Shown: in pieces, positions 1 through 13,542 of the stretch
Numbering within the stretch: the first letter of the stretch is position 1
Layout of the letters: the number at the start of each line of letters is the position of its first letter
IMG/VR virus record: IMGVR_UViG_2529292873_000017
DNA length: 13,542 nucleotides
Reading direction: 5' to 3' (one strand)
Source of the DNA: a virus
Taxonomy: Duplodnaviria; Heunggongvirae; Uroviricota; Caudoviricetes
The notes under the pieces: model-generated
What the model was told of the DNA's origin: nothing
Databases searched by the model: none
What the model saw: only the letters and a program-made list of their open reading frames with translations
Made by a program: the position numbers and the translations under genes

Positions 1-1131
1 TCAAATGACCAGTTTTTTCCATTCCTTACCGCGTGCGTCGTTGTAAATATCGGTCATTTTTTGATTCGAATGGCCTAGCAAAATTTTGGTATCAACCCCC
101 TGCTCTCTGAACAATCGCTCTGATAAAGATCTCTGCTCATGGAAAGAGGGAGGGGTGCCATTAGCACGCCAGTTGTAATCCACAGAATCCCGGGCTTTTT
201 TAAATGCAACGGTTAATGTTGCTGGCTTAACCATCCCGCCGCGCTTAGCTGTCCCTTTCGCGTGATGGTGGTGCAATAGCCACGGACTAAGAACGCAATC
301 GCGGCAGGATGACACCACATCATCCAGGGTGAGATTTAATTTATCGCAACGCAGAGCCAGAGGGATGGCAATCCGGGTTCCTGTTTTTTGCTGTTCGACA
401 TGAAGATAACCATCCCGGATATCCGAAAATTGCATTTTGCAAATATCTGAAAGGCGCTGGCCTGTCATCAGTGCCAGCAGCATACCGCGCTGTAAAAAGT
501 AACCATCCTTTTCCGCTGCGTTATAAATCATCATCCACTCATCAAAAGTCAGTCGCTGTCTTGATATCCGCACCTGCGGTTTTTTTGCCGATTCTGCAGG
601 GTTAAAGCCTGGCGGGACATCGCCCGTTTGCTGAGCTTCCCGGAAAACATCGATCAGTACTTTCCTGAAAATTTGTCCCATTCTGTTATGTCCTCTGGCC
701 TTGTACTCTTCCAGTACTGATACCACATCTTTTACGGTTATGGCATCTAACGGTCTGGTGCCAAAACGTTCATCAAATACCCTGAGAGGGGCCGCTTTCT
801 GTTTCAGCGTGTTGAGTTTGATCTCGCCGTTTTCATATCTTTCCTGTTGAATTTTTCTGTAATTATTCAGAAAAATGGTAACGGTTGATGAACCGCCGGT
901 ATCACTAATAATTTTCTCCTGCAGACTGAGCATTTGTTCCATTTGCTGCCGGGCAAGACGGCTGTTCGCTTCTGCTGCAATAGTTTCTGCCAGTTTCTGG
1001 TCAATACTGCCGAGACCGTGATTTTTGCCTGTTATGGGATGCCTGTAACGCCAGTAAACTTTGTTATTTCTTTTGTCAAAATACGGAGATAATCCCGGAA
1101 CATCGGTTTTATATTTTCGCGGGCGCGCCAT
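1..1131 (-). CDS. int: Tyrosine recombinase / phage integrase (lambda Int family), 376 aa
   Basis: Complete ORF with stop at 1-3. C-terminal region carries integrase-like motifs (TGQR, HEQRSL, LLGH, DIY) alignable to lambda Int from memory. An excisionase-like gene overlaps its 5' end. Confidence 0.9.
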   Translation of the reverse strand: MARPRKYKTDVPGLSPYFDKRNNKVYWRYRHPITGKNHGLGSIDQKLAETIAAEANSRLARQQMEQMLSLQEKIISDTGGSSTVTIFLNNYRKIQQERYENGEIKLNTLKQKAAPLRVFDERFGTRPLDAITVKDVVSVLEEYKARGHNRMGQIFRKVLIDVFREAQQTGDVPPGFNPAESAKKPQVRISRQRLTFDEWMMIYNAAEKDGYFLQRGMLLALMTGQRLSDICKMQFSDIRDGYLHVEQQKTGTRIAIPLALRCDKLNLTLDDVVSSCRDCVLSPWLLHHHHAKGTAKRGGMVKPATLTVAFKKARDSVDYNWRANGTPPSFHEQRSLSERLFREQGVDTKILLGHSNQKMTDIYNDARGKEWKKLVI

Positions 1132-1357
1132 CTTCCAGTATCCTCTTCAAAGCAGGGTGATCTGTGGCGATCACCTCCGGCTTGTTTACCATTCCGACAA
1201 AGCGAGCTTGCGGATCCACTCGCCAGCGTCTTCCAACTTTTTTGGGGAGAGGAAATATCATTCCGGCTTTAGCGTATTTACTTAACGTACTCGGAGTTGG
1301 GACCGGTTCACTGAATTCCTCTTTTGCCCACTCAGTGAGCAGAATAAGTCTTGCCAT
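1109..1357 (-). CDS. xis: Excisionase (Xis-like), 82 aa
   Basis: Small basic ORF immediately upstream of int on the same strand, overlapping int by 23 nt as in the lambda xis-int arrangement. N-terminus MARLILLTEWAKEEF is typical of lambdoid excisionases. Confidence 0.8.
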   Translation of the reverse strand: MARLILLTEWAKEEFSEPVPTPSTLSKYAKAGMIFPLPKKVGRRWRVDPQARFVGMVNKPEVIATDHPALKRILEDGAPAKI

Positions 1358-1421: not shown

Positions 1422-2270
1422 TTAAAAATCAGCCTGACTCGGGATCAGTTTTTGCCAGATAACTGAAACGTATTTTGCCTGGTAACGGGCGTCATCAAGT
1501 GCATTATGGCGCTCACCTTCGAATGGAATAGCCGTTCTGGCATCGAAGTCTATGGCTTTCCCCAGCTCAACGATTGTGCGTACATCGCGATCGTTGTAGT
1601 AACGCCACGGGCAGGGGATCCCCTGCCGTTCGTATGAACGGCGCAAAATCGTGTTGTCGAAGTTGGCTCCATTTCCCCAGACCTGAACAAAAAATTCACC
1701 GGAGTTTTCGTCGATAAATTCCCGCAATTGTAACAGTGCATCATCTAACGGGATTTCATCGGTCATAATGGCAGATTGCGCTTCGCGTGATTGCTTAAGC
1801 CACCATTTAATGGTGTCCCGATCAATGACTCCGCCAGCAGTTTCCAGATCGATAGTCTTACTAAATTCCGGTCCCATATCTCCGGTTTGCGGATCGAAAA
1901 ATATTGCACCTATTGAGATGATCGGGGCATCAGGATTTTTTCCCATGGTTTCAAGGTCGATCATTAGATGGTCACACGTCCTGCTGGTGGATGTGATTTC
2001 GTGATGACCGTTCACCTTAATTGGGTGATCTGCCGTCTCGCCAGTTTCATTATCGCTATTGTGATGCTGATTGCCGCCAGTGTTCTCCTTGTGTGGATGT
2101 TCAGCGCCTTCCATTTCCTCCGGATCATCTTCCTGAACTTCAACCTGATACTCTTCATCGAATGTTTCTTGGTATGTTGCGTCGCCCATCACCGCGCCAC
2201 AATCAGGGCAGTTGCCGCCGCCGGTCTGACCGCAGGCGGTGCAGGCTTTTTCCACTTCCTGTTGCGCCAC
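1422..2270 (-). CDS. DEDDh (DnaQ-like) 3'-5' exonuclease domain protein with N-terminal CxxC...CxxC zinc-ribbon and acidic linker; probably the 3' part of a larger disrupted gene
   Basis: Translation shows Exo I (MIDLETMG), Exo II (WGNGANFD) and Exo III (HNALDDARY) motifs. Starts at GTG, and the frame stays open ~60 nt further upstream, overlapping the next ORF in another frame. Confidence 0.7.
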
Positions 2271-3863
2271 TGGTTCAGGCTGTTTCGTTTCTGGCTCGTT
2301 TTGTAACGCATTTGGACGTTCTGTTCCGTTTCTTGCTGGTTCTGGTTCACAGAATCGCGGGTTTCAATCCCCTTCACCCATTTCGGATCATTCGGGTCGC
2401 TAATCCCTTCAACAAATTCACCACGTGATGCAGCAAGCAACTTATCGGCGTCAGGCTGGCTGATATTGGCTGCCTGCATAATTTTGTTTACTTCGTCAGC
2501 GGTAACTTTTACCGGCTCTGGTTGTTCGAATCTTCAGCGGTATCTACATTTTGCGGTAAGCCCGTGTATGTGCCATTTTTTCGGGCAAAATATTCTTCTT
2601 TTGTGATTTCAGTGGCCCGGCAGCCAGCGCCTTATCCAGACCAGAAAGTTTGTTTGCGCGACCGTATTTTTCGCCATCCTTGTCGGTGAAGAGGAAGTAG
2701 AACGGCCCCTCACGCTCTACAGATGGTTCGACTTCCACTTTGCATTCGGTTTTTTCGTTGTCCGGAATTGCCGTTTCCACTGCATCAGTTTCTGGTACTG
2801 GCGACGAGAGAGTGTCAGTTGCGCTCTGATTTGTTCCTTCATCTTCAAACACGCCCTTTGTCGTCAGGTATTCAGTATATTTGTTCAGTGCACAGGGATC
2901 TTTGTGAATATCGATCGGACGTTCGCGAACAAGGCCAAAAATAGTCTGACGGTCATAGCCAAGTGCTTCGGGCTGTTTGCGCATTGATGCTGAGATACGC
3001 TTCCAGTCTTCGCGATCCTTGTCGATAACCTCATTTGTCGCCCAGCGATGGATGGTACCGTCAATGTTTCCTGCATCCACATCACCGGGCCAGAGGGCGC
3101 AGGCCAGTTCGTCATCCAGTGTTTTCCATGTCTGCTTATATTCGCGGCGAATGGCAACAGTGACAGCCCCGGTTTTTTCAGCAGCGTTTTCAGTGTCTGT
3201 TGGTTGACTCTGGCGCGGGCGAGATCAACAACAGACGTGTATTTTCCGGTTTCCTTGCGTTCACCTTCGCGACGTTTTTTCCAGATGCGCATCTCTGCCT
3301 GAATTTCAGGCCATTTAGCGCCAGGCTCACATTTATGCTTAACCCACCCGATGGCATGCAGTTTAAGTTCAGGATACATGGCGTTAACTTCTGGCATTTT
3401 CATCAACGCTTCAACGATATGTCCGCCGAATGTTGCCATGTCTTCCTGTAGTAATTCCTGTGCGCTAATCACCATATCAACGGTGATGTTTTCGCATGTG
3501 TCGAACTTAACCATGACAGCGTTCTGTACTTCAGGGGACAGCTTGTCAAAAGTGACGTTCATCGGATCGGATTCAGTCTCGACCGGTACAAAGGAAGCTG
3601 ACTCCTCATCCCAGCGGTTTTCCTGCATATATTCGCATCCCAGGAATCGAGGGCAGGGCGGGGTATGCCGGGTTTATCCTCGCAGACAATAAATTTATAA
3701 GCGCAGTCCTGAGCTGCCGGGAATTGCTCCAGAAATTGCCAGTGAAATTTTGCGCGTGCGCGACGCTCATCACCGGCTTCAATGGCAGTGGCTACAGCAC
3801 AGCGCCTTCTTCCTTTATTGCCTGTTCGTCAGGAATAGCGGCGCAAATAAAGACTTTACTCAT
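2189..3863 (-). pseudogene. Frame-disrupted early-left region upstream of the exonuclease domain: protein-like segments in at least four frames that overlap each other
   Basis: Minus-strand ORFs 3863-3792, ~3840-3560, 3628-2885, 3235/3080-2544 and 2479-2189 overlap by 80-350 nt in different frames. Each translates to non-repetitive protein-like sequence. A 7-T run sits at 2571-2577. Confidence 0.55.
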
Positions 3864-3956
3864 TTTGTTTTAACCTCATTACAGATTTAAGGGTGAACAA
3901 ATCCCTGCCATTGCTGGCATATAAGAATGAAATCGGATGTTTATTACGGAACTGTT

Positions 3957-4148
3957 TTAAAGACCTGCCGGGATTTCGTTATTATCCTGGTGAATAACTT
4001 TATCGACAGGGTAACAGTTACCGGGAATTTTCTGTTCGGTTGCTGCAGTCACACACTCCTGCATTGTCCTGTGAACACTGACTGCAATATCAACTGGCTC
4101 TCCGGAAACAAGAAAAACTGTCAGAACAAGTGCAAATGCTGTATTCAT
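3957..4148 (-). CDS. ydfD: YdfD-like small membrane lysis protein, 63 aa
   Basis: Start ATG overlaps the dicB stop (ATGA). Hydrophobic N-terminus MNTAFALVLTVFLVSG. Size and position after dicB match YdfD of the Qin prophage. Confidence 0.75.
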   Translation of the reverse strand: MNTAFALVLTVFLVSGEPVDIAVSVHRTMQECVTAATEQKIPGNCYPVDKVIHQDNNEIPAGL

Positions 4149-4333
4149 TGCCAGCATCCTTTTTGTATCGGACGTAAACGGGCCAGCATTGAAAGAATGC
4201 ATATTTTATTTAATAACTCCCGTTCGTGTTTTCTCTTGTTAATGGCATCTTCAGTAAATACAGGGTTACTGATAGTGACACCAATTTCAAAACAACCTTC
4301 AGACGTATTAACGTTTGGTAATAACGTTTCCAT
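4145..4333 (-). CDS. dicB: Cell-division inhibitor DicB (MinC-activating), 62 aa
   Basis: Protein METLLPNVNTSEGCFEIGVTISNPVFTEDAINKRKHERELLNKICILSMLARLRPIQKGCWQ is near-identical to E. coli DicB as I recall it. AGGA lies 9 nt upstream of the ATG; dicF is upstream and ydfD downstream. Confidence 0.85.
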   Translation of the reverse strand: METLLPNVNTSEGCFEIGVTISNPVFTEDAINKRKHERELLNKICILSMLARLRPIQKGCWQ

Positions 4334-4506
4334 TATCGCGTCCTCAACAATGAATTTTGTGATGCAGTGCCTGGTGCCTCCAGGTGACGTTAACCAGTTA
4401 ACAATTAACGCCGGATACAGAGAATCCACCCATAACACTGTTTTTGGTTTAACTGTTCCGCGTGCGCTTAGCCGCATTCACCGCATCACAAAATTCACTT
4501 TAAAAA

Positions 4507-4560
4507 GGGCGGCAGAGCAGTTCACGGAGTAAAACTGATACCGCCAAACGTCACCAGAAA
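4507..4560 (-). ncRNA. dicF: DicF small regulatory RNA (Hfq-dependent, targets ftsZ mRNA)
   Basis: Minus-strand sequence TTTCTGGTGACGTTTGGCGGTATCAGTTTTACTCCGTGAACTGCTCTGCCGCCC followed by TTTTT matches my recollection of the 53-nt DicF, with a possible 1-nt difference. Lies directly upstream of dicB. Confidence 0.85.
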
Positions 4561-4892
4561 ATTGATAACAGAGGGCGTTGCAGCGGGGTTGTCACTTAAG
4601 CGTATGGTCAACCTGACAACCCGGTGTCCTCAACGGGGAAGGAATAACCCCGCCATACTTACCGCCGCGCCATTTCGCGGATTGCCACAACCGGAAGCGC
4701 ACGGTCGAATTAAATTTAACGACAGGCTATCTATGAACCAGCAACTTCGCCGTGCGCTTTCGCGTTATGCCTGACTTTTCAGGGAAATATCCTTTCAGTA
4801 AACTGTCAGTGCCGGATGTTCACCCGTGTCCGGCGCACGCACTCCACTTCACCCGTGGAGAACTCCTTAATTACCAACCCTCAGGAGGGTGA

Positions 4893-5126
4893 ATGTTAAA
4901 ATCAACTCTTATTGCTAAATGCCTTTATCAAAATCGCATGGTAAGCAGCATTTCAATAGGCGAGTCTGCAGTTAAAAGTATTTTCGAAGAGTACTTTCCC
5001 GGGCATGATTTTAATAAATGGAATACCAAATTACCGCCAGCAGTTTCAACGCGTATTCTGAAAGCAACCGAAAGAGCAAGTACAATTCGCGTTAACTATT
5101 TCATTAAAGATTTGTGGGATCTTTGA
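4893..5126 (+). CDS. Hypothetical 77-aa protein, convergent with and overlapping the 3' end of the 135-aa minus-strand ORF
   Basis: ATG preceded by AGGAGGG with a 3-4 nt spacer. AT-rich. No motif recognised. It sits on the opposite strand to the surrounding operon. Confidence 0.4.
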   Translation: MLKSTLIAKCLYQNRMVSSISIGESAVKSIFEEYFPGHDFNKWNTKLPPAVSTRILKATERASTIRVNYFIKDLWDL

Positions 5127-5511
5127 TATCCACAGAGCCTAAAGTATGTGCATATGGATGTGCTATTATGCGCCCTCGCAGATTTGCATCATTTTCTAAA
5201 TTCACTGAACGAAACAGGGCATCAACAAGGCTCTGTACAATGCAAAGGCAATCGAAGACTGTCGCCGTTTCTGTTTTGATTGATGAAAGAACATGGCCAT
5301 TCACGCAAACAGAAATTACCCGTTTATTAACATCGCTTTCCTGCTTTTGATTATCAGAACCATATAGCCCAGAAAAAGCATTGCGCACATTACGAACCAT
5401 ATTATCGATGGTTTCTTTTTCTGCGGTACTAAGGTCAAGAGTAGCCAGTTGTGAACGAACTATATTCGATGCCATTTCCTGTAATGGCGTTGGTAAATCT
5501 TTAAATTCCAT
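5104..5511 (-). CDS. Hypothetical 135-aa protein (AT-rich insertion within the dicB-type operon)
   Basis: ATG with GAGG 7 nt upstream, 22 nt after the stop of the upstream gene. Lower GC than flanking phage genes. No recognisable catalytic motif, signal peptide or TM segment. Confidence 0.6.
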   Translation of the reverse strand: MEFKDLPTPLQEMASNIVRSQLATLDLSTAEKETIDNMVRNVRNAFSGLYGSDNQKQESDVNKRVISVCVNGHVLSSIKTETATVFDCLCIVQSLVDALFRSVNLENDANLRGRIIAHPYAHTLGSVDIKDPTNL

Positions 5512-5533
5512 TATTAGCCTCGTTGGTTAGCTA

Positions 5534-5752
5534 TTAACGTGGGTATGTAATCATTCTGGCAATGCTTAATGCCGCTGCTTTTTCCAGATTGGTGATATCC
5601 TGCTCCAGAGCGGACAGATTTTCAGCCTGCTTAGCCCTGGCTTCATTGGCCCATTTCAGGTCCTGCACCGCCTTAATTTTCTGGTGCATCCACTCATAAA
5701 GTTCATCATCGGTATAGTCTGGCGCGATGATGACGGGGTCTCGTTTCTGCAT
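5534..5752 (-). CDS. Hypothetical 72-aa protein at the ydfC position of the dicB-type operon
   Basis: AGGAG 5 nt upstream of the ATG. Predicted coiled-coil-like C-terminal half. Size and position match ydfC, but I cannot confirm the sequence from memory. Confidence 0.6.
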   Translation of the reverse strand: MQKRDPVIIAPDYTDDELYEWMHQKIKAVQDLKWANEARAKQAENLSALEQDITNLEKAAALSIARMITYPR

Positions 5753-5821
5753 GTCGGCTCCTTGTGGTTGTGTGCCTGCTTTTAACCACGTCAGGCGAGG
5801 TGGTATCCTCTGAGGGGTCTG

Positions 5822-6178
5822 TTACTCGAGAGGAAATTGGTTATGAATACAATCAAGTTTTCTTGCCCAGAATGTGGTGGCTAAGTCTTTGACACATCCT
5901 TTAAGCCGCAGGGCTCTGACAGTTTCGCGGGAGCCATCTGCAAAAATTGTGGTCACCTTGTAACTGAAGATGAGTCCTCGCAGTTCGATGACGAAATCGT
6001 TGACAATATCTTCGGTGCACTCACCAGAGACTTTCTGAAGTAAAGGCGCATACCGCTTAGTTACCGCTCTGATAACTCTTACCTGTCCGGCAATGGCGCT
6101 GATATCAATATAAAGCGCCATCGCTGTTTCTTTGCTGATCCCTGGACGCCTTCCATTCTGATGTTTGACTTCGCCCAC
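5822..6178 (-). CDS. Hypothetical protein, first gene downstream of the leftward early promoter (ydfA/ydfB position); start uncertain
   Basis: ORF of 118 aa from GTG at 6178, or 99 aa from ATG at 6121. No motif recognised. Confidence 0.45.
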   Translation of the reverse strand: MGEVKHQNGRRPGISKETAMALYIDISAIAGQVRVIRAVTKRYAPLLQKVSGECTEDIVNDFVIELRGLIFSYKVTTIFADGSRETVRALRLKGCVKDLATTFWARKLDCIHNQFPLE

Positions 6179-6384
6179 TGAGAAATCCTCTGCTTCCCCT
6201 TAACGCCGGGTAGCGGAACTGTTTGCTGAGAACACCGTGCGGTGTCTTGATGAGTAGAATTTAGAATAGCCTAAGAGTTATGGTCAAGCTTTTGTGTAGA
6301 AAAACCTAAGCTTCTTGATGTAAAAAACACAAGTATTTGAAAGTTTGTGCTTTTTATTACAGAGAGTTGCGAAAAAAAGGGGGG
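6179..6384 (-). promoter_or_regulatory. Leftward early (pL-like / dicB-operon) promoter region with inverted repeats
   Basis: About 205-bp non-coding gap between the repressor gene and the first early-left gene. Contains ACACCG..CGGTGT and TTGTGT...ACACAA inverted repeats and AT-rich stretches. Exact -35/-10 elements not assigned. Confidence 0.35.
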
Positions 6385-6792
6385 TTATTTATTTGCGCTT
6401 CTTTTGCGAGCTTTGAGTAGTTCTTCAAAAAGTTTGTTGAAATTCTCAACTCGAGCACGCATCTCTGACAACAGAGCCTTTTGCTCTGACTCAGGCAGTG
6501 CGTCGAACAGTTGAAGCAACTCTTTTTGATCTTCTGTCAGATTGACTGGCTGATTATCTGGGATCGGTTCGCCTGGTTGCTTATCTTCATCTCCAAAAAG
6601 AAGCCAAGTCGGCGAGCACTGAAGCGCCTGGCTCAGTGCGAATAATCTCTTCCCCGCTGGCTGTGTTTCATCTCTTTCCCATTGAGAAATTGTTACGTGA
6701 GCCACTTTGACCAGCTTACCTAATGCGGCCTGAGACAGTTTTAATTTTTTTCGCCTGTATAAGAGGCGAGCACCGAAGGTTTCGTTTTTCAT
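6385..6792 (-). CDS. dicA: DicA/CI-type prophage repressor (XRE-family HTH), 135 aa
   Basis: N-terminal HTH (LKLSQAALGKLVKVAHVTISQWE). Divergent from a Cro-like gene and upstream of the dicF-dicB operon. Same length as DicA. Confidence 0.75.
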   Translation of the reverse strand: MKNETFGARLLYRRKKLKLSQAALGKLVKVAHVTISQWERDETQPAGKRLFALSQALQCSPTWLLFGDEDKQPGEPIPDNQPVNLTEDQKELLQLFDALPESEQKALLSEMRARVENFNKLFEELLKARKRSANK

Positions 6793-6868
6793 ATTAGGTA
6801 ATTCTAATTTTTCTTGACTTAGGTTTCTCTACGATCTAGTTTCCTTAGGAAAATCTAAGGGGTTCGAT
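6793..6868. promoter_or_regulatory. Divergent promoter/operator region between repressor and Cro-like genes
   Basis: 76-bp gap containing TTGACT, the 18-bp inverted repeat CCTTAG-gaaaat-CTAAGG (6843-6860), TTAGgtaattCTAA (6794-6807) and further TTAGG half-sites. Confidence 0.6.
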
Positions 6869-7096
6869 ATGTTGAAAATTGATGCTATAGCGTTTTTTGG
6901 CAGCAAAACAAAGCTTGCCAATGTCGCAGGAGTTAGGCTGGCAAGCGTTGCTGCATGGGGGGAACTGGTTCCTGAAGGTCGCGCGATGCGCCTGCAAGAG
7001 GCATCCGGCGGGGAACTTCAGTACGACCCCAAAGTTTATGACGAATATCGTAAGGCAAAGCGGGCGGGGCGGTTGAACAATGAAAATCACCACTGA
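6869..7096 (+). CDS. Cro-like / DicC-YdaS family small DNA-binding protein, 75 aa
   Basis: Small ORF divergent from the repressor; its 3' end overlaps the start of the ydaT-like gene. The family assignment rests on position and size. Confidence 0.7.
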   Translation: MLKIDAIAFFGSKTKLANVAGVRLASVAAWGELVPEGRAMRLQEASGGELQYDPKVYDEYRKAKRAGRLNNENHH

Positions 7097-7631
7097 ACAG
7101 GTTTGTGAGGCTCTGGATACCTGGGTATGCCGACCAGGAATGACACAGGAGCAGGCGACGATATTAATCACGGAAGCATTCTGGGCTCTGAAAGAACGCC
7201 CGAACATCGATGTTCAACGCGTCACGTTTAATGATGGCGAGGTTGATCAACGGGCGCTGGGCGTTAACCGGGTGAAGATATTCGAACGCTGGAAAGCTAT
7301 CGACACCAGAGATAAGCGTGACAAATTCACGGCGCTGATTCCGGCAATTATGGAGGCTATCCGGATCAGCGATTTCAGATTGTATTGTGAAATTACTGAC
7401 GGAAAAAGCATTACGTACATGATCGCCGGGTTAAACAAAGAATATGGCGATGTGGTGGAGTCCGGGCTGCTTTTTGCGGATCCAGTTGTTGTGGAACGTG
7501 AGACTGACGAGCTTATAGAAAAAGCTATTGCTTTCAAGCACGCGTATCGTCAGCAATACCAATATTACTTTGCAGATAAACAAATGTCTGCCAGGGGGTC
7601 GTATGAGTATCGATGCACTACGATGGGCTAA
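7080..7631 (+). CDS. ydaT: YdaT-family protein (proposed CII functional analogue), 183 aa
   Basis: Immediately follows and overlaps the Cro-like gene, as ydaS-ydaT in Rac-type prophages. The assignment is from gene order, not a confirmed sequence match. Confidence 0.6.
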   Translation: MKITTEQVCEALDTWVCRPGMTQEQATILITEAFWALKERPNIDVQRVTFNDGEVDQRALGVNRVKIFERWKAIDTRDKRDKFTALIPAIMEAIRISDFRLYCEITDGKSITYMIAGLNKEYGDVVESGLLFADPVVVERETDELIEKAIAFKHAYRQQYQYYFADKQMSARGSYEYRCTTMG

Positions 7632-8184
7632 AAAGGTGAAAACCGGCAGTTCATCCAGTAAGTCAGTATTGACCTGGCTTGCTGATATGTGCGGTGCCGA
7701 TTTGTGTGCATACCCGTCTGTATCTGCACTGGCAGAAGTAACGGAACTGAACAAAAAGACTGTGCAGGACAGCTTACGACACCTGATGGAGATTGGGTTA
7801 ATTGTTGATACCGGTGAGAGAAAAGGCAGAACAAAGCAAATTGTGGTGTACCGACTTATCGGTGTAGAAGAAAGTGTTGCCGAGCCTGAATACACCCAAA
7901 AACGGGAGTCTTTAAAGGTGGGTACAATTGGTGCTGTTAATAAAAACAGTACCGAAAATGGTTATGTTTCAGCACAAAACAGACCCAAAAACAGAACTCT
8001 TAGCTGCATGGAAAATAACCAAAGACACCCAAATTTTCCATCAAAGACACCCAAAAACGGATCACGGAACCCAAAGGAACCCAAAGAATTAAACCCCACA
8101 CATAACGCGCGCGAGAGTGCTCCGACCAGTGAGCAGGAAGTTTTGTCGTTACAGGCAGCCCCCCTGTATTCCTGTATGGCCTGA
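7603..8184 (+). CDS. Replication initiator (O-like, N-terminal winged-helix) with low-complexity linker encoded by iteron-like repeats, 193 aa
   Basis: ATG at 7603 preceded by AGGGGG. N-terminus MSIDALRWAKKVKTG... looks HTH-like. Phased ACCCAAA repeats lie inside the coding sequence. Confidence 0.65.
   Translation: MSIDALRWAKKVKTGSSSSKSVLTWLADMCGADLCAYPSVSALAEVTELNKKTVQDSLRHLMEIGLIVDTGERKGRTKQIVVYRLIGVEESVAEPEYTQKRESLKVGTIGAVNKNSTENGYVSAQNRPKNRTLSCMENNQRHPNFPSKTPKNGSRNPKEPKELNPTHNARESAPTSEQEVLSLQAAPLYSCMA
7980..8090. repeat. Iteron-like direct repeats (candidate replication origin) inside the initiator gene
   Basis: ACCCAAA cores at 7983, 8027, 8049, 8069 and 8079, spaced 44, 22, 20 and 10 bp apart. 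AAAGACACCCAAA occurs twice and GGAACCCAAAG/GAACCCAAAG is tandem. The flank at ~7931-7980 is AT-rich. Confidence 0.5.
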
Positions 8185-8207
8185 GCGAACCCATCGGAAA
8201 ATTCCCG

Positions 8208-9092
8208 ATGAGCGATAGCTGGTATCCGTCACGGGATTTTCGACGACGGGCTGCGTTGTGGGGGATGGCTTTGCCGGAGACAGAATTTACACCTGCTGAA
8301 CTTGCCGCCTTCCGGGACTACTGGGCAGCGGAGGGGAAAGTGTTTACGCAGGTTCAGTGGGAGCAGAAATTTGCCCGTCACGTGCAGCACGTCAGGGCAC
8401 AGGTAAAACCAGTCAGCAAGGGGGTAAGCCATGCAGCACCAGGTGGCACCGCATCACGGGCAGTTCAGGAAATCCGGGCTGCACGTGAACAGTGGGAACG
8501 TGAAAACGGATTTATCAGCAACGGAAACGGCCTGGAAGCTGTGGGAACTTATGGGGGAGGTGTATTCGAACCGCTGGATCAGAAGAACGGGGCTGCGCCG
8601 TCGAAGCTCTGGATTGCTCAGATTGGCGCGATGACTGAACAGCAAATCCGGCAGGTCTGCCGTCAGTGCATGGACCGCTGCCGGGCGGGTGAAACGTGGC
8701 CTCCGGACCTGGCTGAGTTTGTGGCGTTGATTTCGGAGAGCGGGGCAAATCCATTTGGCCTGACGGTGGATGCCGTGATGGAGGAGTACCGTCGCTGGAG
8801 GAATGAATCCTGGCGGTACGACGGGAGTGATAAATACCCGTGGCCACAGCCGGTGCTGTACCACATTTGCCTCGAGATGCGTTCAAAGGGGATTGAGCGC
8901 CAGATGACCGAAGGGGAGTTAAAACGGCTTGCAGAACGGCAACTGACGAAATGGGCAAAGCATGTTGGTAACGGCCTGAGTGTTCCGCCAGTCCGGCGAC
9001 AACTGGCAGCACCCAAACGCCCGCCAGGGCCAACGCCAATTGAGTTGCTGAAACAGGAATATGAGCGCCGGAAGGCGGCCGGTTTTGTCTGA
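8208..9092 (+). CDS. DnaT-like (primosomal protein I domain) replication protein, 294 aa
   Basis: Segment DFRRRAALWGMALPETEFTPAELAAFRDYWAAEGKVFTQVQWEQKFARHV resembles the C-terminal region of E. coli DnaT as I recall it. Confidence 0.65.
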   Translation: MSDSWYPSRDFRRRAALWGMALPETEFTPAELAAFRDYWAAEGKVFTQVQWEQKFARHVQHVRAQVKPVSKGVSHAAPGGTASRAVQEIRAAREQWERENGFISNGNGLEAVGTYGGGVFEPLDQKNGAAPSKLWIAQIGAMTEQQIRQVCRQCMDRCRAGETWPPDLAEFVALISESGANPFGLTVDAVMEEYRRWRNESWRYDGSDKYPWPQPVLYHICLEMRSKGIERQMTEGELKRLAERQLTKWAKHVGNGLSVPPVRRQLAAPKRPPGPTPIELLKQEYERRKAAGFV

Positions 9093-10720: not shown

Positions 10721-11479
10721 ATGAGGAACATAATGGCAGGTTTTTTAATATTCCTGTCTTCTGCTGCTTATGCTGATATCAATCTGTATGGTCCTGGTGG
10801 CCCGCATACAGCCTTGCTTGATGCAGCCAAACTTTATGCCGAAAAAACAGGTATTATAGTGAACGTTCATTACGGCCCACAGAACAAATGGAATGAAGAT
10901 GCCAAAAAAAATGCAGATATCTTGTTTGGCGCATCAGAACAATCTGCTCTGGCTATCATTCGGGACCATAAAGACAGCTTCAGTGAAAAAGATATTCAGC
11001 CTCTTTATCTGCGAAAAAGTATTTTACTGGTAAAGAAAGGTAATCCTAAAAATATCCGGAGTATTGACGACCTGACCAGACCTGGGATTGGCGTAATTGT
11101 TAATGATGGTGGTGGTACCAGTAATACATCAGGCACTGGCGTCTGGGAAGATATTGCCGGACGTAAAGGGAATATAGAAACTGTCGCCGCAATCCGAAAA
11201 AATATTATTTTATATGCGCCCAATAGCGGAACTGCACGTAAGGCTCTTGAGAATCAGCCTGGAGCAGATGTCTGGATAACCTGGGCTGACTGGGCAGCCA
11301 GTAATCCAGAAATTGGTGATGTCGTGGAAATAGCGCCAGACTACGTGATATGGCGTGATATGAACATTACAGTACGTCAGGATGCAAATGATGAAACCCG
11401 TCGATTTGCAGAATGGCTACAAACCGATGAAGCGGCGCCTGCATTCAAAAAATATGGCTGGACCAGGAAAGGCACTTGA
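10721..11479 (+). CDS. Orphan periplasmic substrate-binding protein, ModA/oxyanion-binding-like, 252 aa with signal peptide
   Basis: SD AAAAGGAG 6 nt upstream of the ATG. N-terminal signal peptide MRNIMAGFLIFLSSAAYA. Loose resemblance to ModA, including the C-terminal AAPAFKKYGW versus ModA AAEIFKRYGF. AT-rich; no permease or ATPase gene adjacent. Confidence 0.65.
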   Translation: MRNIMAGFLIFLSSAAYADINLYGPGGPHTALLDAAKLYAEKTGIIVNVHYGPQNKWNEDAKKNADILFGASEQSALAIIRDHKDSFSEKDIQPLYLRKSILLVKKGNPKNIRSIDDLTRPGIGVIVNDGGGTSNTSGTGVWEDIAGRKGNIETVAAIRKNIILYAPNSGTARKALENQPGADVWITWADWAASNPEIGDVVEIAPDYVIWRDMNITVRQDANDETRRFAEWLQTDEAAPAFKKYGWTRKGT

Positions 11480-11622: not shown

Positions 11623-11814
11623 GCGAAAACGGTTTGCTGTAACGGCAGAGTTAAGTAGGATTGCTGCGGGTGCTTGAGGCTATCTGCCTCGGGCATGAAC
11701 ACCAACGGCAGATAGATAAAAGCCCCACCCGACTATAAATCGAAGTGAGGCCCCTATATGCTCGTCACATATAGATTGCCTCTTACGGACCGAAAGGTCA
11801 AGGAGAAGCAGGCT

Positions 11815-11970
11815 ATGAAGCAGCAAAAGGCGATGTTAATCGCCCTGATCGTCATCTGTTTAACCGTCATAGTGACGGCACTGGTAACGAGGAAAGACCT
11901 CTGCGAGGTACGAATCCGAACCGGCCAGACGGAGGTCGCTGTCTTCACAGCTTACGAACCTGAGGAGTAA
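11815..11970 (+). CDS. hokD: Hok/Gef-family type I toxin (HokD/RelF-like), 51 aa
   Basis: Protein MKQQKAMLIALIVICLTVIVTALVTRKDLCEVRIRTGQTEVAVFTAYEPEE matches Hok-family toxins and my recollection of HokD/RelF. AAGGAG 9 nt upstream. An in-frame upstream ATG at 11758 would add 19 residues. Confidence 0.8.
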   Translation: MKQQKAMLIALIVICLTVIVTALVTRKDLCEVRIRTGQTEVAVFTAYEPEE

Positions 11971-12066: not shown

Positions 12067-12190
12067 TTTTCAACGCGTTTGAAGTTCCGGACGGCGCCGG
12101 AATAGAATCAAAAATACTTAAGTAGCGCGCAGGGAGAAGAGGGATGGACCCCGAACAGGGGAGTGCTATTTATCTGGAAGGATTCTGTTG

Positions 12191-12448
12191 ATGAGAATCG
12201 AAGAATTACGTGAAATTTTTAGTGAAGATGGCCTCTATACTGTGCGCGTTGAGAAGGGCGCTATTGTCAGCCACTGCCGTATTAAATGTTTACAGTCTCA
12301 ACAAAGGAAGAGTGGAGCTGCGTTAATTCATTTTGTGGATGGGCTTGTGACGGATGGTTTTATTTTGCGTGCAAATGAATTTGTCACATCGTTGCCGTCT
12401 CTGAAAGAAGCTGGGATTAAGGCTGGTTTTTCTGCTTTTGAAGATTAG
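12191..12448 (+). CDS. Hypothetical small protein, 85 aa (position of rem in Qin-type prophages)
   Basis: ATG with GGAAGGA upstream; a TTG one codon earlier is an alternative start. No motif recognised. Confidence 0.5.
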   Translation: MRIEELREIFSEDGLYTVRVEKGAIVSHCRIKCLQSQQRKSGAALIHFVDGLVTDGFILRANEFVTSLPSLKEAGIKAGFSAFED

Positions 12449-12797: not shown

Positions 12798-13196
12798 GTG
12801 CGGGTATTACTTCGACCTGTTCCGGTACCGGAACTTGGGTTGGTGGTCCTTAAACCAGGCCGTGAATCCATGCAGGTATTCCATAACCCTCGAGTGCTTG
12901 TGGAGCCGGAGCCGAAAAGCATGCGCGGTCTGCCGTCCGGCATCGTACCTGCCGTTCACCAGCCGCTGGCGGAAGATAAATCACTACTGCCATTTTTCAG
13001 CGATGAGCGGGTGATCCGTGCTGCGGGTGGCGCTGGTGCACTGTCTGACTGGTTATTACGTCACGTGAAATCCTGCCAGTGGCCTCATGGTGATTATCAT
13101 CACAGCGAAACCGTCATTCACCGTTACGGTACCGGCGCGATGGTGTTGTGCTGGCACTGCGACAACCAGCTGCGGACCAGACATCCGAATCACTGA
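12798..13196 (+). CDS. Hypothetical protein with Cys/His-rich C-terminus (CQWPHGDYHH...CWHCDN), 132 aa; possibly the N-terminal part of a longer gene
   Basis: GTG start with GGAGGT 5 nt upstream. A downstream frame overlaps its end and is open from ~13087, suggesting a frameshift or overlapping genes. Confidence 0.45.
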   Translation: MRVLLRPVPVPELGLVVLKPGRESMQVFHNPRVLVEPEPKSMRGLPSGIVPAVHQPLAEDKSLLPFFSDERVIRAAGGAGALSDWLLRHVKSCQWPHGDYHHSETVIHRYGTGAMVLCWHCDNQLRTRHPNH

Positions 13197-13227
13197 GCAA
13201 CTTGCTCAACAGAATCTGGCAGCATGG

Positions 13228-13542
13228 ATGATTGACATCATCCGTCACGCAATGAATGGCGCACAGGAGCGTGAATTATCTCTGGCTGAATTATCCTGGT
13301 GGGCGGTCCGCAATCAGGTGGCGGACGCGCTACCGGAAGCGGTATTACGTCGTTCGCTGGGGTTGCGTGCGGAAAAAATCCGCTCCGTATACCGTGAAAG
13401 CGACATCGTACCGGGAGAACAGACCGCCACCAGCATACTGAAGCAGCGCACAAAAAATCTTGCGCCGCTGCCTCACGCCCACCAGCAAAACCCACCACAG
13501 GAAAAGACGGTGGTCAGCATTGCCGTTGATCCGGAGTCTCCG
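13228..13542 (+). CDS. Hypothetical protein, 5' part only (runs off the window end); may continue the preceding ORF after a frameshift
   Basis: Frame open from an ATG at 13228 to the last base of the window; the same frame is already open from ~13087. No obvious SD. Confidence 0.35.
   Translation, partial: MIDIIRHAMNGAQERELSLAELSWWAVRNQVADALPEAVLRRSLGLRAEKIRSVYRESDIVPGEQTATSILKQRTKNLAPLPHAHQQNPPQEKTVVSIAVDPESP

Follow-up and report, generated by a model that had tools for sequence, protein, structure and literature searches.

The cassette at the locus

The viral record IMGVR_UViG_2529292873_000017 (Caudoviricetes) comprises 13,542 nucleotides (nt), which were analysed as a whole and are called the window in what follows. 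Within positions 3957-4560, entirely on the minus strand, it carries dicF, dicB and ydfD, which specify a small RNA, a cell-division inhibitor and a lysis protein. A sequence-only reading had placed a complete dicF-dicB-ydfD module there, on the integrase side of a DicA-like repressor. This is borne out by matches to Rfam, Pfam and NCBIfam families, by alignment with Escherichia coli K-12, and by the position of the integrase (1-1131) and of the repressor (6385-6792). The region is very probably the early-left operon (PL-type) of a PPompW/Qin-like lambdoid prophage, repressed by a DicA-type protein and encoding DicF, DicB and YdfD. Gene identity, integrity and arrangement, promoter and operator motifs and RNA folds were computed here, and we infer the biochemical steps from work on K-12. 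The cassette itself is made up as follows.

4507-4560, minus strand: dicF, small RNA gene (Rfam RF00039), 54 nt against 53 nt in K-12
4334-4506, minus strand: spacer between dicF and dicB, 98.3% identical to K-12
4145-4333, minus strand: dicB, cell-division inhibitor of 62 amino acids (aa) (Pfam PF05358 and NCBIfam NF049927)
3957-4148, minus strand: ydfD, DUF1482 lysis protein of 63 aa (Pfam PF07358)
3906-3919, minus strand: terminator-like hairpin directly after ydfD (consensus scan; sequence conserved in K-12)

The Rfam model of DicF is covered in full (positions 1-52 of 52) by a match at 4507-4559 that scores 73.7 bits, for a gathering score of 48 and an E value of 5e-15, and that contains one base more than the model; the start at 4560 applies the K-12 5' end, the Rfam match itself ending at 4559. 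DicB matched PF05358 over residues 1-62 of 62 (E 1.7e-37, 127.4 bits for a cut-off of 27) and NF049927 with 132.7 bits (cut-off 100), and YdfD matched PF07358 with 88 bits (E 3.7e-25; cut-off 25). Both proteins are identical throughout to RefSeq proteins annotated in related genomes, DicB to WP_000449192.1 (62/62) and YdfD to WP_001090200.1 (63/63), and they are the commonest alleles among DicF-carrying IMG/VR loci (20 of 95 for DicB, 22 for YdfD). Compared with K-12, YdfD is identical at 59 of 63 residues and keeps the hydrophobic N-terminus MNTAFALVLTVFLVSG. DicB is identical at 55 of 62, the seven residues that differ being clustered C-terminally, with five of them within the last eight. 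At the DNA level, identity to the Qin prophage of K-12 reaches 93.1% for dicB and 96.9% for ydfD, and the alignment of dicF has 53/53 shared bases identical, plus one inserted base. As judged from these matches and alignments, the identification of the module is confirmed, far beyond chance. The further claim that the cassette is intact holds for dicB and ydfD, which are full length, and has to be amended for DicF, which contains a 1-nt insertion relative to K-12.

The ydfD ATG does overlap the dicB stop, as had been noticed, in the form ATGA, just as it does in K-12; of 95 related IMG/VR loci, 85 have the same overlap. Coupling of ydfD translation to that of dicB is a reasonable inference from this overlap; ydfD also has an AGGA of its own 8 nt upstream of its start codon. 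Given the gene layout, expression of dicB requires that transcription read through the DicF terminator, and the hairpin that follows ydfD agrees with the K-12 transcript, which ends after ydfD (PMC10448788).

Much is known of these genes in K-12. Repression of ftsZ by DicF uses the 3' half of the RNA, and that of xylR, pykA and manX the 5' end (PMC5069750). DicB acts through MinC, blocking both division and ManYZ-dependent phage entry (PMC6832061), and YdfD inhibits IspG, which leads to lysis (PMC8835842). DicF is cut from the K-12 leader by RNase III together with RNase E, Rem relieves DicA repression, and filamentation follows when this repression is lifted (PMC10448788). The effects that had been ascribed to the cassette (a division block by DicF and DicB, lysis by YdfD, altered susceptibility to phages that use ManYZ, and toxicity on derepression) are those published for the Qin orthologues, to which the window genes are 89-98% identical.

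Two other signals were met in the same interval. The spacer and the start of dicB (4301-4509, minus strand) give a full-length match to the Rfam family STnc100, which stays below threshold (34.9 bits, gathering score 47; E 2.6e-5 in a 2.6-kb search). On the plus strand, a 201-aa open reading frame (ORF) at 3927-4532 lies antisense to ydfD, dicB and a portion of the spacer. Only the window's allele group keeps it open; the K-12 allele cuts it down to 129 aa and divergent alleles to 69-106 aa, and it was rejected as a gene.

Proposed control by a DicA-type switch

The elements that would control the cassette lie upstream of it, with a candidate antirepressor farther away.

6258-6287, minus strand: PL-like promoter, equivalent of dicBp (promoter scan; -35 TTGACC, -10 TAAATT)
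6260-6275 and 6295-6310: two operator-like sites CTTAG-N6-CTAAG that flank or overlap the leftward promoter, with a 35-bp spacing
6385-6792, minus strand: DicA-family repressor of 135 aa (NCBIfam NF007257 'transcriptional repressor DicA' and Pfam HTH_3)
6793-6808, 6818-6833 and 6844-6859: three further operator-like sites, located between the repressor gene and the cro-like gene
6869-7096, plus strand: DicC/Cro-like regulator of 75 aa (Pfam P22_Cro, 3.2e-13; 62/76 identical to DicC)
12188-12448, plus strand: Rem-like antirepressor candidate (61/84, or 73%, identical to K-12 Rem; E 2e-40)

The repressor matches NF007257 over residues 1-135 of 135 with 241.6 bits, for a cut-off of 101, and Pfam finds helix-turn-helix families only, without a peptidase S24 self-cleavage domain. 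It is identical to K-12 DicA at 84 of 135 residues (62%), and the DicC/Cro-like gene is divergent from it. When up to two mismatches are allowed, CTTAG-N6-CTAAG occurs at six places in the window (13.5 kb), and five of these belong to one or other of the two control regions; within three mismatches, the leftward promoter yielded no third operator. A control search of the K-12 locus with GTTAG-N6-CTAAC returned one pair of sites in the dicC-dicA spacer and another pair upstream of ydfA, and the latter has the same 35-bp spacing as the pair at the leftward promoter of the window. This promoter is sigma-70-like and has its -35 hexamer and downstream leader in common with K-12 dicBp. Because the layout and spacing of operators and promoter parallel those of K-12, and the repressor belongs to the same family, control of the cassette by a DicA-type repressor, as had been proposed from the letters alone, is well supported by the architecture. 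The repressor is nevertheless probably of an immunity type different from that of DicA, in view of its 62% identity and of operator flanks that read CTTAG instead of GTTAG.

The Rem-like protein is a candidate antirepressor of this repressor. Its gene adjoins hok/sok, as in Qin, and no LexA box in the style of Gifsy antirepressors was found near 12188, upstream of it.

The leftward operon and its proposed course

Between the promoter and dicF the leftward operon comprises a leader and several small genes.

5822-6121, minus strand: orf99, 99 aa (PHROG family only; families 21318, 1744 and 1363 account for orf99, ydfC and orf135 as a set)
5534-5752, minus strand: ydfC, 68/72 identical to K-12
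5104-5511, minus strand: orf135 (phrog_1363)
4893-5126, plus strand: orf77 (phrog_10348, E 1.1e-47)
4561-4880, minus strand: untranslated leader of 320 nt preceding dicF, 95.3% identical to the K-12 ydfC-dicF spacer

The orf99-ydfC-orf135 order is that of PPompW_132418. Relative to K-12, an insertion of about 650 base pairs between ydfC and the dicF leader (window 4893-5533) carries orf135 and orf77; of 5,426 complete E. coli genomes, about 650 share this arrangement. The gene orf77 lies on the opposite strand inside the leftward operon, converging on orf135 with an overlap of 23 bp; PPompW and related E. coli genomes have it annotated as hypothetical, and K-12 Qin lacks it. All four genes, orf99, ydfC, orf135 and orf77, belong to PHROG families of unknown function and have no PADLOC, Pfam or NCBIfam match, and any label as a defence system or other family was dropped, since these PHROG families alone matched. 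The scan returned no minus-strand terminator-like site from the promoter to dicF. The leader is strongly structured in the predicted fold, and DicF would be cut from it as it is by RNases in K-12; the leader is conserved here and lies in an operon context.

Taken together with the K-12 work, these features suggest the following course. In the lysogen, the short non-cleavable DicA-family repressor would bind the operators overlapping the leftward promoter at about 6258-6287 and keep the operon almost silent. Derepression might come about by either of two routes: the Rem-like antirepressor, whose gene lies 6 kb away, could inactivate the repressor, or the repressor/Cro-like switch could flip of its own accord. 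A single long transcript would then run through orf99, ydfC, orf135 and the 320-nt structured leader, from which DicF would be excised, its 3' end being formed by its own hairpin and U-run. The small RNA would pair with the ribosome-binding region of ftsZ by its 3' half and with metabolic mRNAs by its 5' end. Read-through past the DicF terminator would yield DicB, expected to send MinC to the septum and to block ManYZ, and YdfD, translated from the ATG that overlaps the dicB stop, would inhibit IspG and provoke lysis.

Prophage context and decay

The window is a lambdoid prophage of the PPompW type, found beside ompW in near-identical E. coli genomes. It is collinear, at 97.5-98% identity, with the ompW prophages of O157:H7 and of other cattle- and human-derived E. 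coli; the best whole-window identity among complete E. coli genomes is 98.0%, with none higher. Read leftward, the gene order is repressor, promoter, orf99, ydfC, orf135, leader, dicF-dicB-ydfD, exonuclease pseudogene, xis and int. The other genes that matter here are these.

1-1131, minus strand: integrase (Pfam integrase domains)
1109-1357, minus strand: excisionase, xis (annotation of the near-identical locus next to ompW)
1422-3873, minus strand: exonuclease pseudogene downstream of ydfD, homologue of K-12 ydfE, multiply frameshifted
7603-8640, plus strand: O-like replication gene, frameshifted
12798-13542, plus strand: DUF968 gene with 1-nt deletions relative to the reference

Decay is most advanced in the exonuclease gene. 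A tblastn search with the intact 823-aa protein recovered pieces in three frames, and the gene has suffered many 1-nt deletions together with one 22-bp deletion. Its DNA reaches no more than 94.9% identity in any of the complete E. coli genomes, and an exact-pattern scan for the window-specific deletion junction found none in GTDB representative genomes. The exonuclease, replication and DUF968 intervals contain most of the mismatches to the closest genomes, and a 294-aa ORF at 8208-9092 has no exact protein match. With its exonuclease and replication genes frameshifted the prophage looks defective, and it is probably unable to replicate normally. By contrast, dicF, dicB, ydfD, the repressor, the cro-like and Rem-like genes and the operators have all remained full length despite their broken neighbours. 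This decay around an intact switch and cassette is the pattern already described for Qin.

The same prophage also transports cargo, in the form of the adhesin gene paa (10721-11479, plus strand) and of the sok antisense RNA (RF01794, 103.9 bits) with the hokD toxin gene (11668-11970, plus strand).

The extra base of DicF and how the locus may be read

The base by which DicF exceeds its K-12 counterpart is an A at window 4521/4522, where A becomes AA: the variant reads ...CUCCGUGAACUG... and the K-12 form ...CUCCGUGACUG.... The insertion falls in the terminator hairpin, inside the 3' part that pairs with ftsZ. The sequence-only reading had named divergence at functionally critical positions, for example in the DicF seed, as what would speak against it. 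In the alignment with K-12, the 5' seed is unchanged: the first 34-38 nt are identical to K-12, and the 5' end stays unpaired through nt 14-15 in the fold. The anti-Shine-Dalgarno core UUUUACUCC is likewise unaltered. In the predicted fold the extra A pairs with a U, which adds one pair to the upper stem and shortens the loop from 9 to 8 nt. The hairpin, followed by the U-run CCCUUUUU, is predicted at -17.7 kcal/mol against -15.9 in K-12, that is, 1.8 kcal/mol more stable. The best unconstrained duplex of the DicF core with ftsZ is essentially unchanged (-24.1 vs -23.6 kcal/mol in K-12), as is visible also for the full-length duplex (-39.0 vs -38.5).

Several points weigh against seeing in the locus a straightforward equivalent of the K-12 cassette. 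The net energy of DicF binding to ftsZ is predicted at -10.4 kcal/mol, against -11.9 for K-12, and the extra A stands 3 nt 3' of a G that compensatory mutation has proven to pair with ftsZ. In that pair, DicF23/ftsZcomp23, the bracketed G of CUCC[G]UG in DicF is matched to the bracketed C of GGCA[C]AAAU in ftsZ (PMC5069750, supplementary file 5 oligos); in the corresponding register the predicted duplex drops to -13.8 from -17.8 kcal/mol, the 1x1 mismatch within GUG-A-CUG / CAG-G-CAC becoming a larger internal loop. As for the proteins, the DicB allele differs from the one tested in K-12 at 7 of 62 residues, so that its binding of MinC and inhibition of ManYZ are presumed by homology, and binding of the proposed operators is likewise presumed for a repressor only 62% identical to DicA. 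Antisense orf77 could interfere with read-through, and what the locus does is argued from expression and phenotype work in K-12. For the extra base, the predicted effect on ftsZ pairing extends from none to about 4 kcal/mol of weakening, and the energy differences lie within the error of the models. Most likely the extra A is neutral or mildly weakening for ftsZ pairing, and the sequence-only interpretation is not refuted.

Could the cassette be canonical and the extra A a mere sequencing or assembly error? This is possible, if somewhat doubtful. The change turns one A into AA, and it has been seen nowhere else. A 67-nt query located dicF at 5,811 places across the 5,426 complete E. coli genomes, none of them with the 54-nt form, and exact-pattern scans found it absent from GTDB representative genomes, IMG/VR and JGI metagenomes, a control pattern with the K-12 form matching more than 120 IMG/VR contigs. 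DicF is 53 nt long in all 22 phage records compared, and exactly 53 nt in all 122 copies found upstream of dicB in IMG/VR loci. However, of the 1-nt insertions or deletions (indels) that separate the well-conserved stretch 3874-7650 from the closest genome, 7 of 7 fall outside protein-coding ORFs, which occupy about 72% of that stretch; this is the pattern expected of selection acting on real mutations, not of random read errors. The indels of the neighbouring pseudogenes, moreover, are mostly outside homopolymer runs. If the base is real, DicF might be functionally altered, with weaker ftsZ repression or stronger termination resulting in less division inhibition, or less DicB and YdfD, than in Qin. 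The insertion does sit within the validated ftsZ-pairing segment GUG-A-CUG, where the modelled duplex is about 4 kcal/mol weaker in the validated register, and the predicted extra pair and stability of the hairpin could raise termination before dicB. Yet the anti-Shine-Dalgarno core and 5' seed are preserved, the optimal predicted duplex is unaffected, and the differences do not exceed model error. The very A that is doubled is among the few naturally variable positions, being changed from A to G in 5 of 122 DicF copies, which suggests that the position tolerates change. We consider an altered function unlikely. More improbable still is the specific proposal that the 54-nt DicF is a real lineage-specific allele that partly uncouples ftsZ repression from the metabolic targets or tightens termination, with less DicB and YdfD as the result; were it true, the variant would amount to a naturally attenuated form of a toxic prophage cassette.

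The state of the neighbouring genes raises another question, namely whether the cassette is no more than an inert relic that has outlasted the decay of the prophage by chance and not by use. Frameshifts in the exonuclease and O-like replication genes and the 1-nt deletions of the DUF968 gene would fit such a view. It is very unlikely in the face of a cassette, repressor, cro-like gene, Rem-like gene and operators that are full length beside broken neighbours, and of regional indels that avoid ORFs. In addition, the dicF-dicB-ydfD block was matched in 4,762 of 5,426 complete E. coli genomes, and the K-12 Qin prophage, although also defective, still expresses its cassette (PMC10448788). The best reading is that of a DicA-type-repressed early-left operon. 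Published work or public records already cover the cassette and its control by DicA, DicC and Rem, as well as its occurrence in PPompW prophages and, in multiple copies, in pathogenic E. coli, with DicF present four times in O157:H7 (PMC7873438, PMC10448788). The locus adds a further clean example of a defective prophage that keeps a toxic division-inhibition cassette and its switch while the neighbours decay. Its importance lies mainly in correct annotation, the one unusual detail being the singleton insertion in DicF. Should this single-base variant be real, it would offer an inexpensive natural experiment on the slack in the pairing of DicF with ftsZ and in the DicF terminator.

Comparison with related systems

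K-12 Qin has the same order, ydfC, leader, dicF, dicB, ydfD, exonuclease (ydfE) and int, with 93-98% DNA identity over leader, dicF, spacer, dicB and ydfD and the same ATGA overlap. It likewise combines a DicA-family repressor and a DicC-like Cro with a pair of leftward operators spaced by 35 bp, and a Rem homologue lies close to hokD. The window differs from it in its repressor (62% identical) and operator flanks (CTTAG vs GTTAG in K-12), in having an unrelated 99-aa gene in the place of ydfA/ydfB and the 650-bp insertion with orf135 and antisense orf77, in the seven residue changes of DicB and the extra base of DicF, and in an intact integrase, whereas intQ is a pseudogene in K-12.

With PPompW of Shiga-toxin-producing E. 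coli (for example PPompW_132418, LC567822), the whole window is collinear at 97.5-98%. Both have the int/xis end, orf99, ydfC, orf135, orf77, dicB, ydfD, the immunity genes, paa and hokD in common. The annotation of PPompW_132418 already includes dicA, dicC, ydfC and a 'cell division inhibition protein', and its exonuclease is already marked as frameshifted. In the window, by contrast, the exonuclease has more frameshifts and is at most 94.9% identical to complete E. coli genomes, the replication gene is frameshifted, and the DicF insertion is unique.

A functional temperate phage, mEp460_ev081 (LR597641), shares the gene order of the window for dicF, dicB, a ydfD-like gene and the genes of a DicA-type repressor and a DicC-like protein, and its cassette lies upstream of an intact exonuclease, xis and int. 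The genes between its repressor and dicF are different, and it is viable, unlike the window prophage with its broken exonuclease and replication genes. Since the cassette has the same position in this phage, it is a normal early-left operon of live phages of this group.

By analogy, the cassette may also be likened to lambda Kil and Rac KilR, where a small toxic product of a repressor-controlled leftward operon blocks FtsZ ring formation on induction. These proteins are not known to be related in sequence to DicB or DicF, nor their systems to include a small RNA.

A last observation concerns the start of the leftward transcript, where a 36-nt block, CACCGCACGGTGTTCTCAGCAAACAGTTCCGCTACC (6209-6244, minus strand), contains a small hairpin, CACCG-CA-CGGTG. 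The block is identical in K-12 Qin, mEp460_ev081 and PPompW, and occurs in 28 of 126 fetched loci despite their differing operators and first gene.

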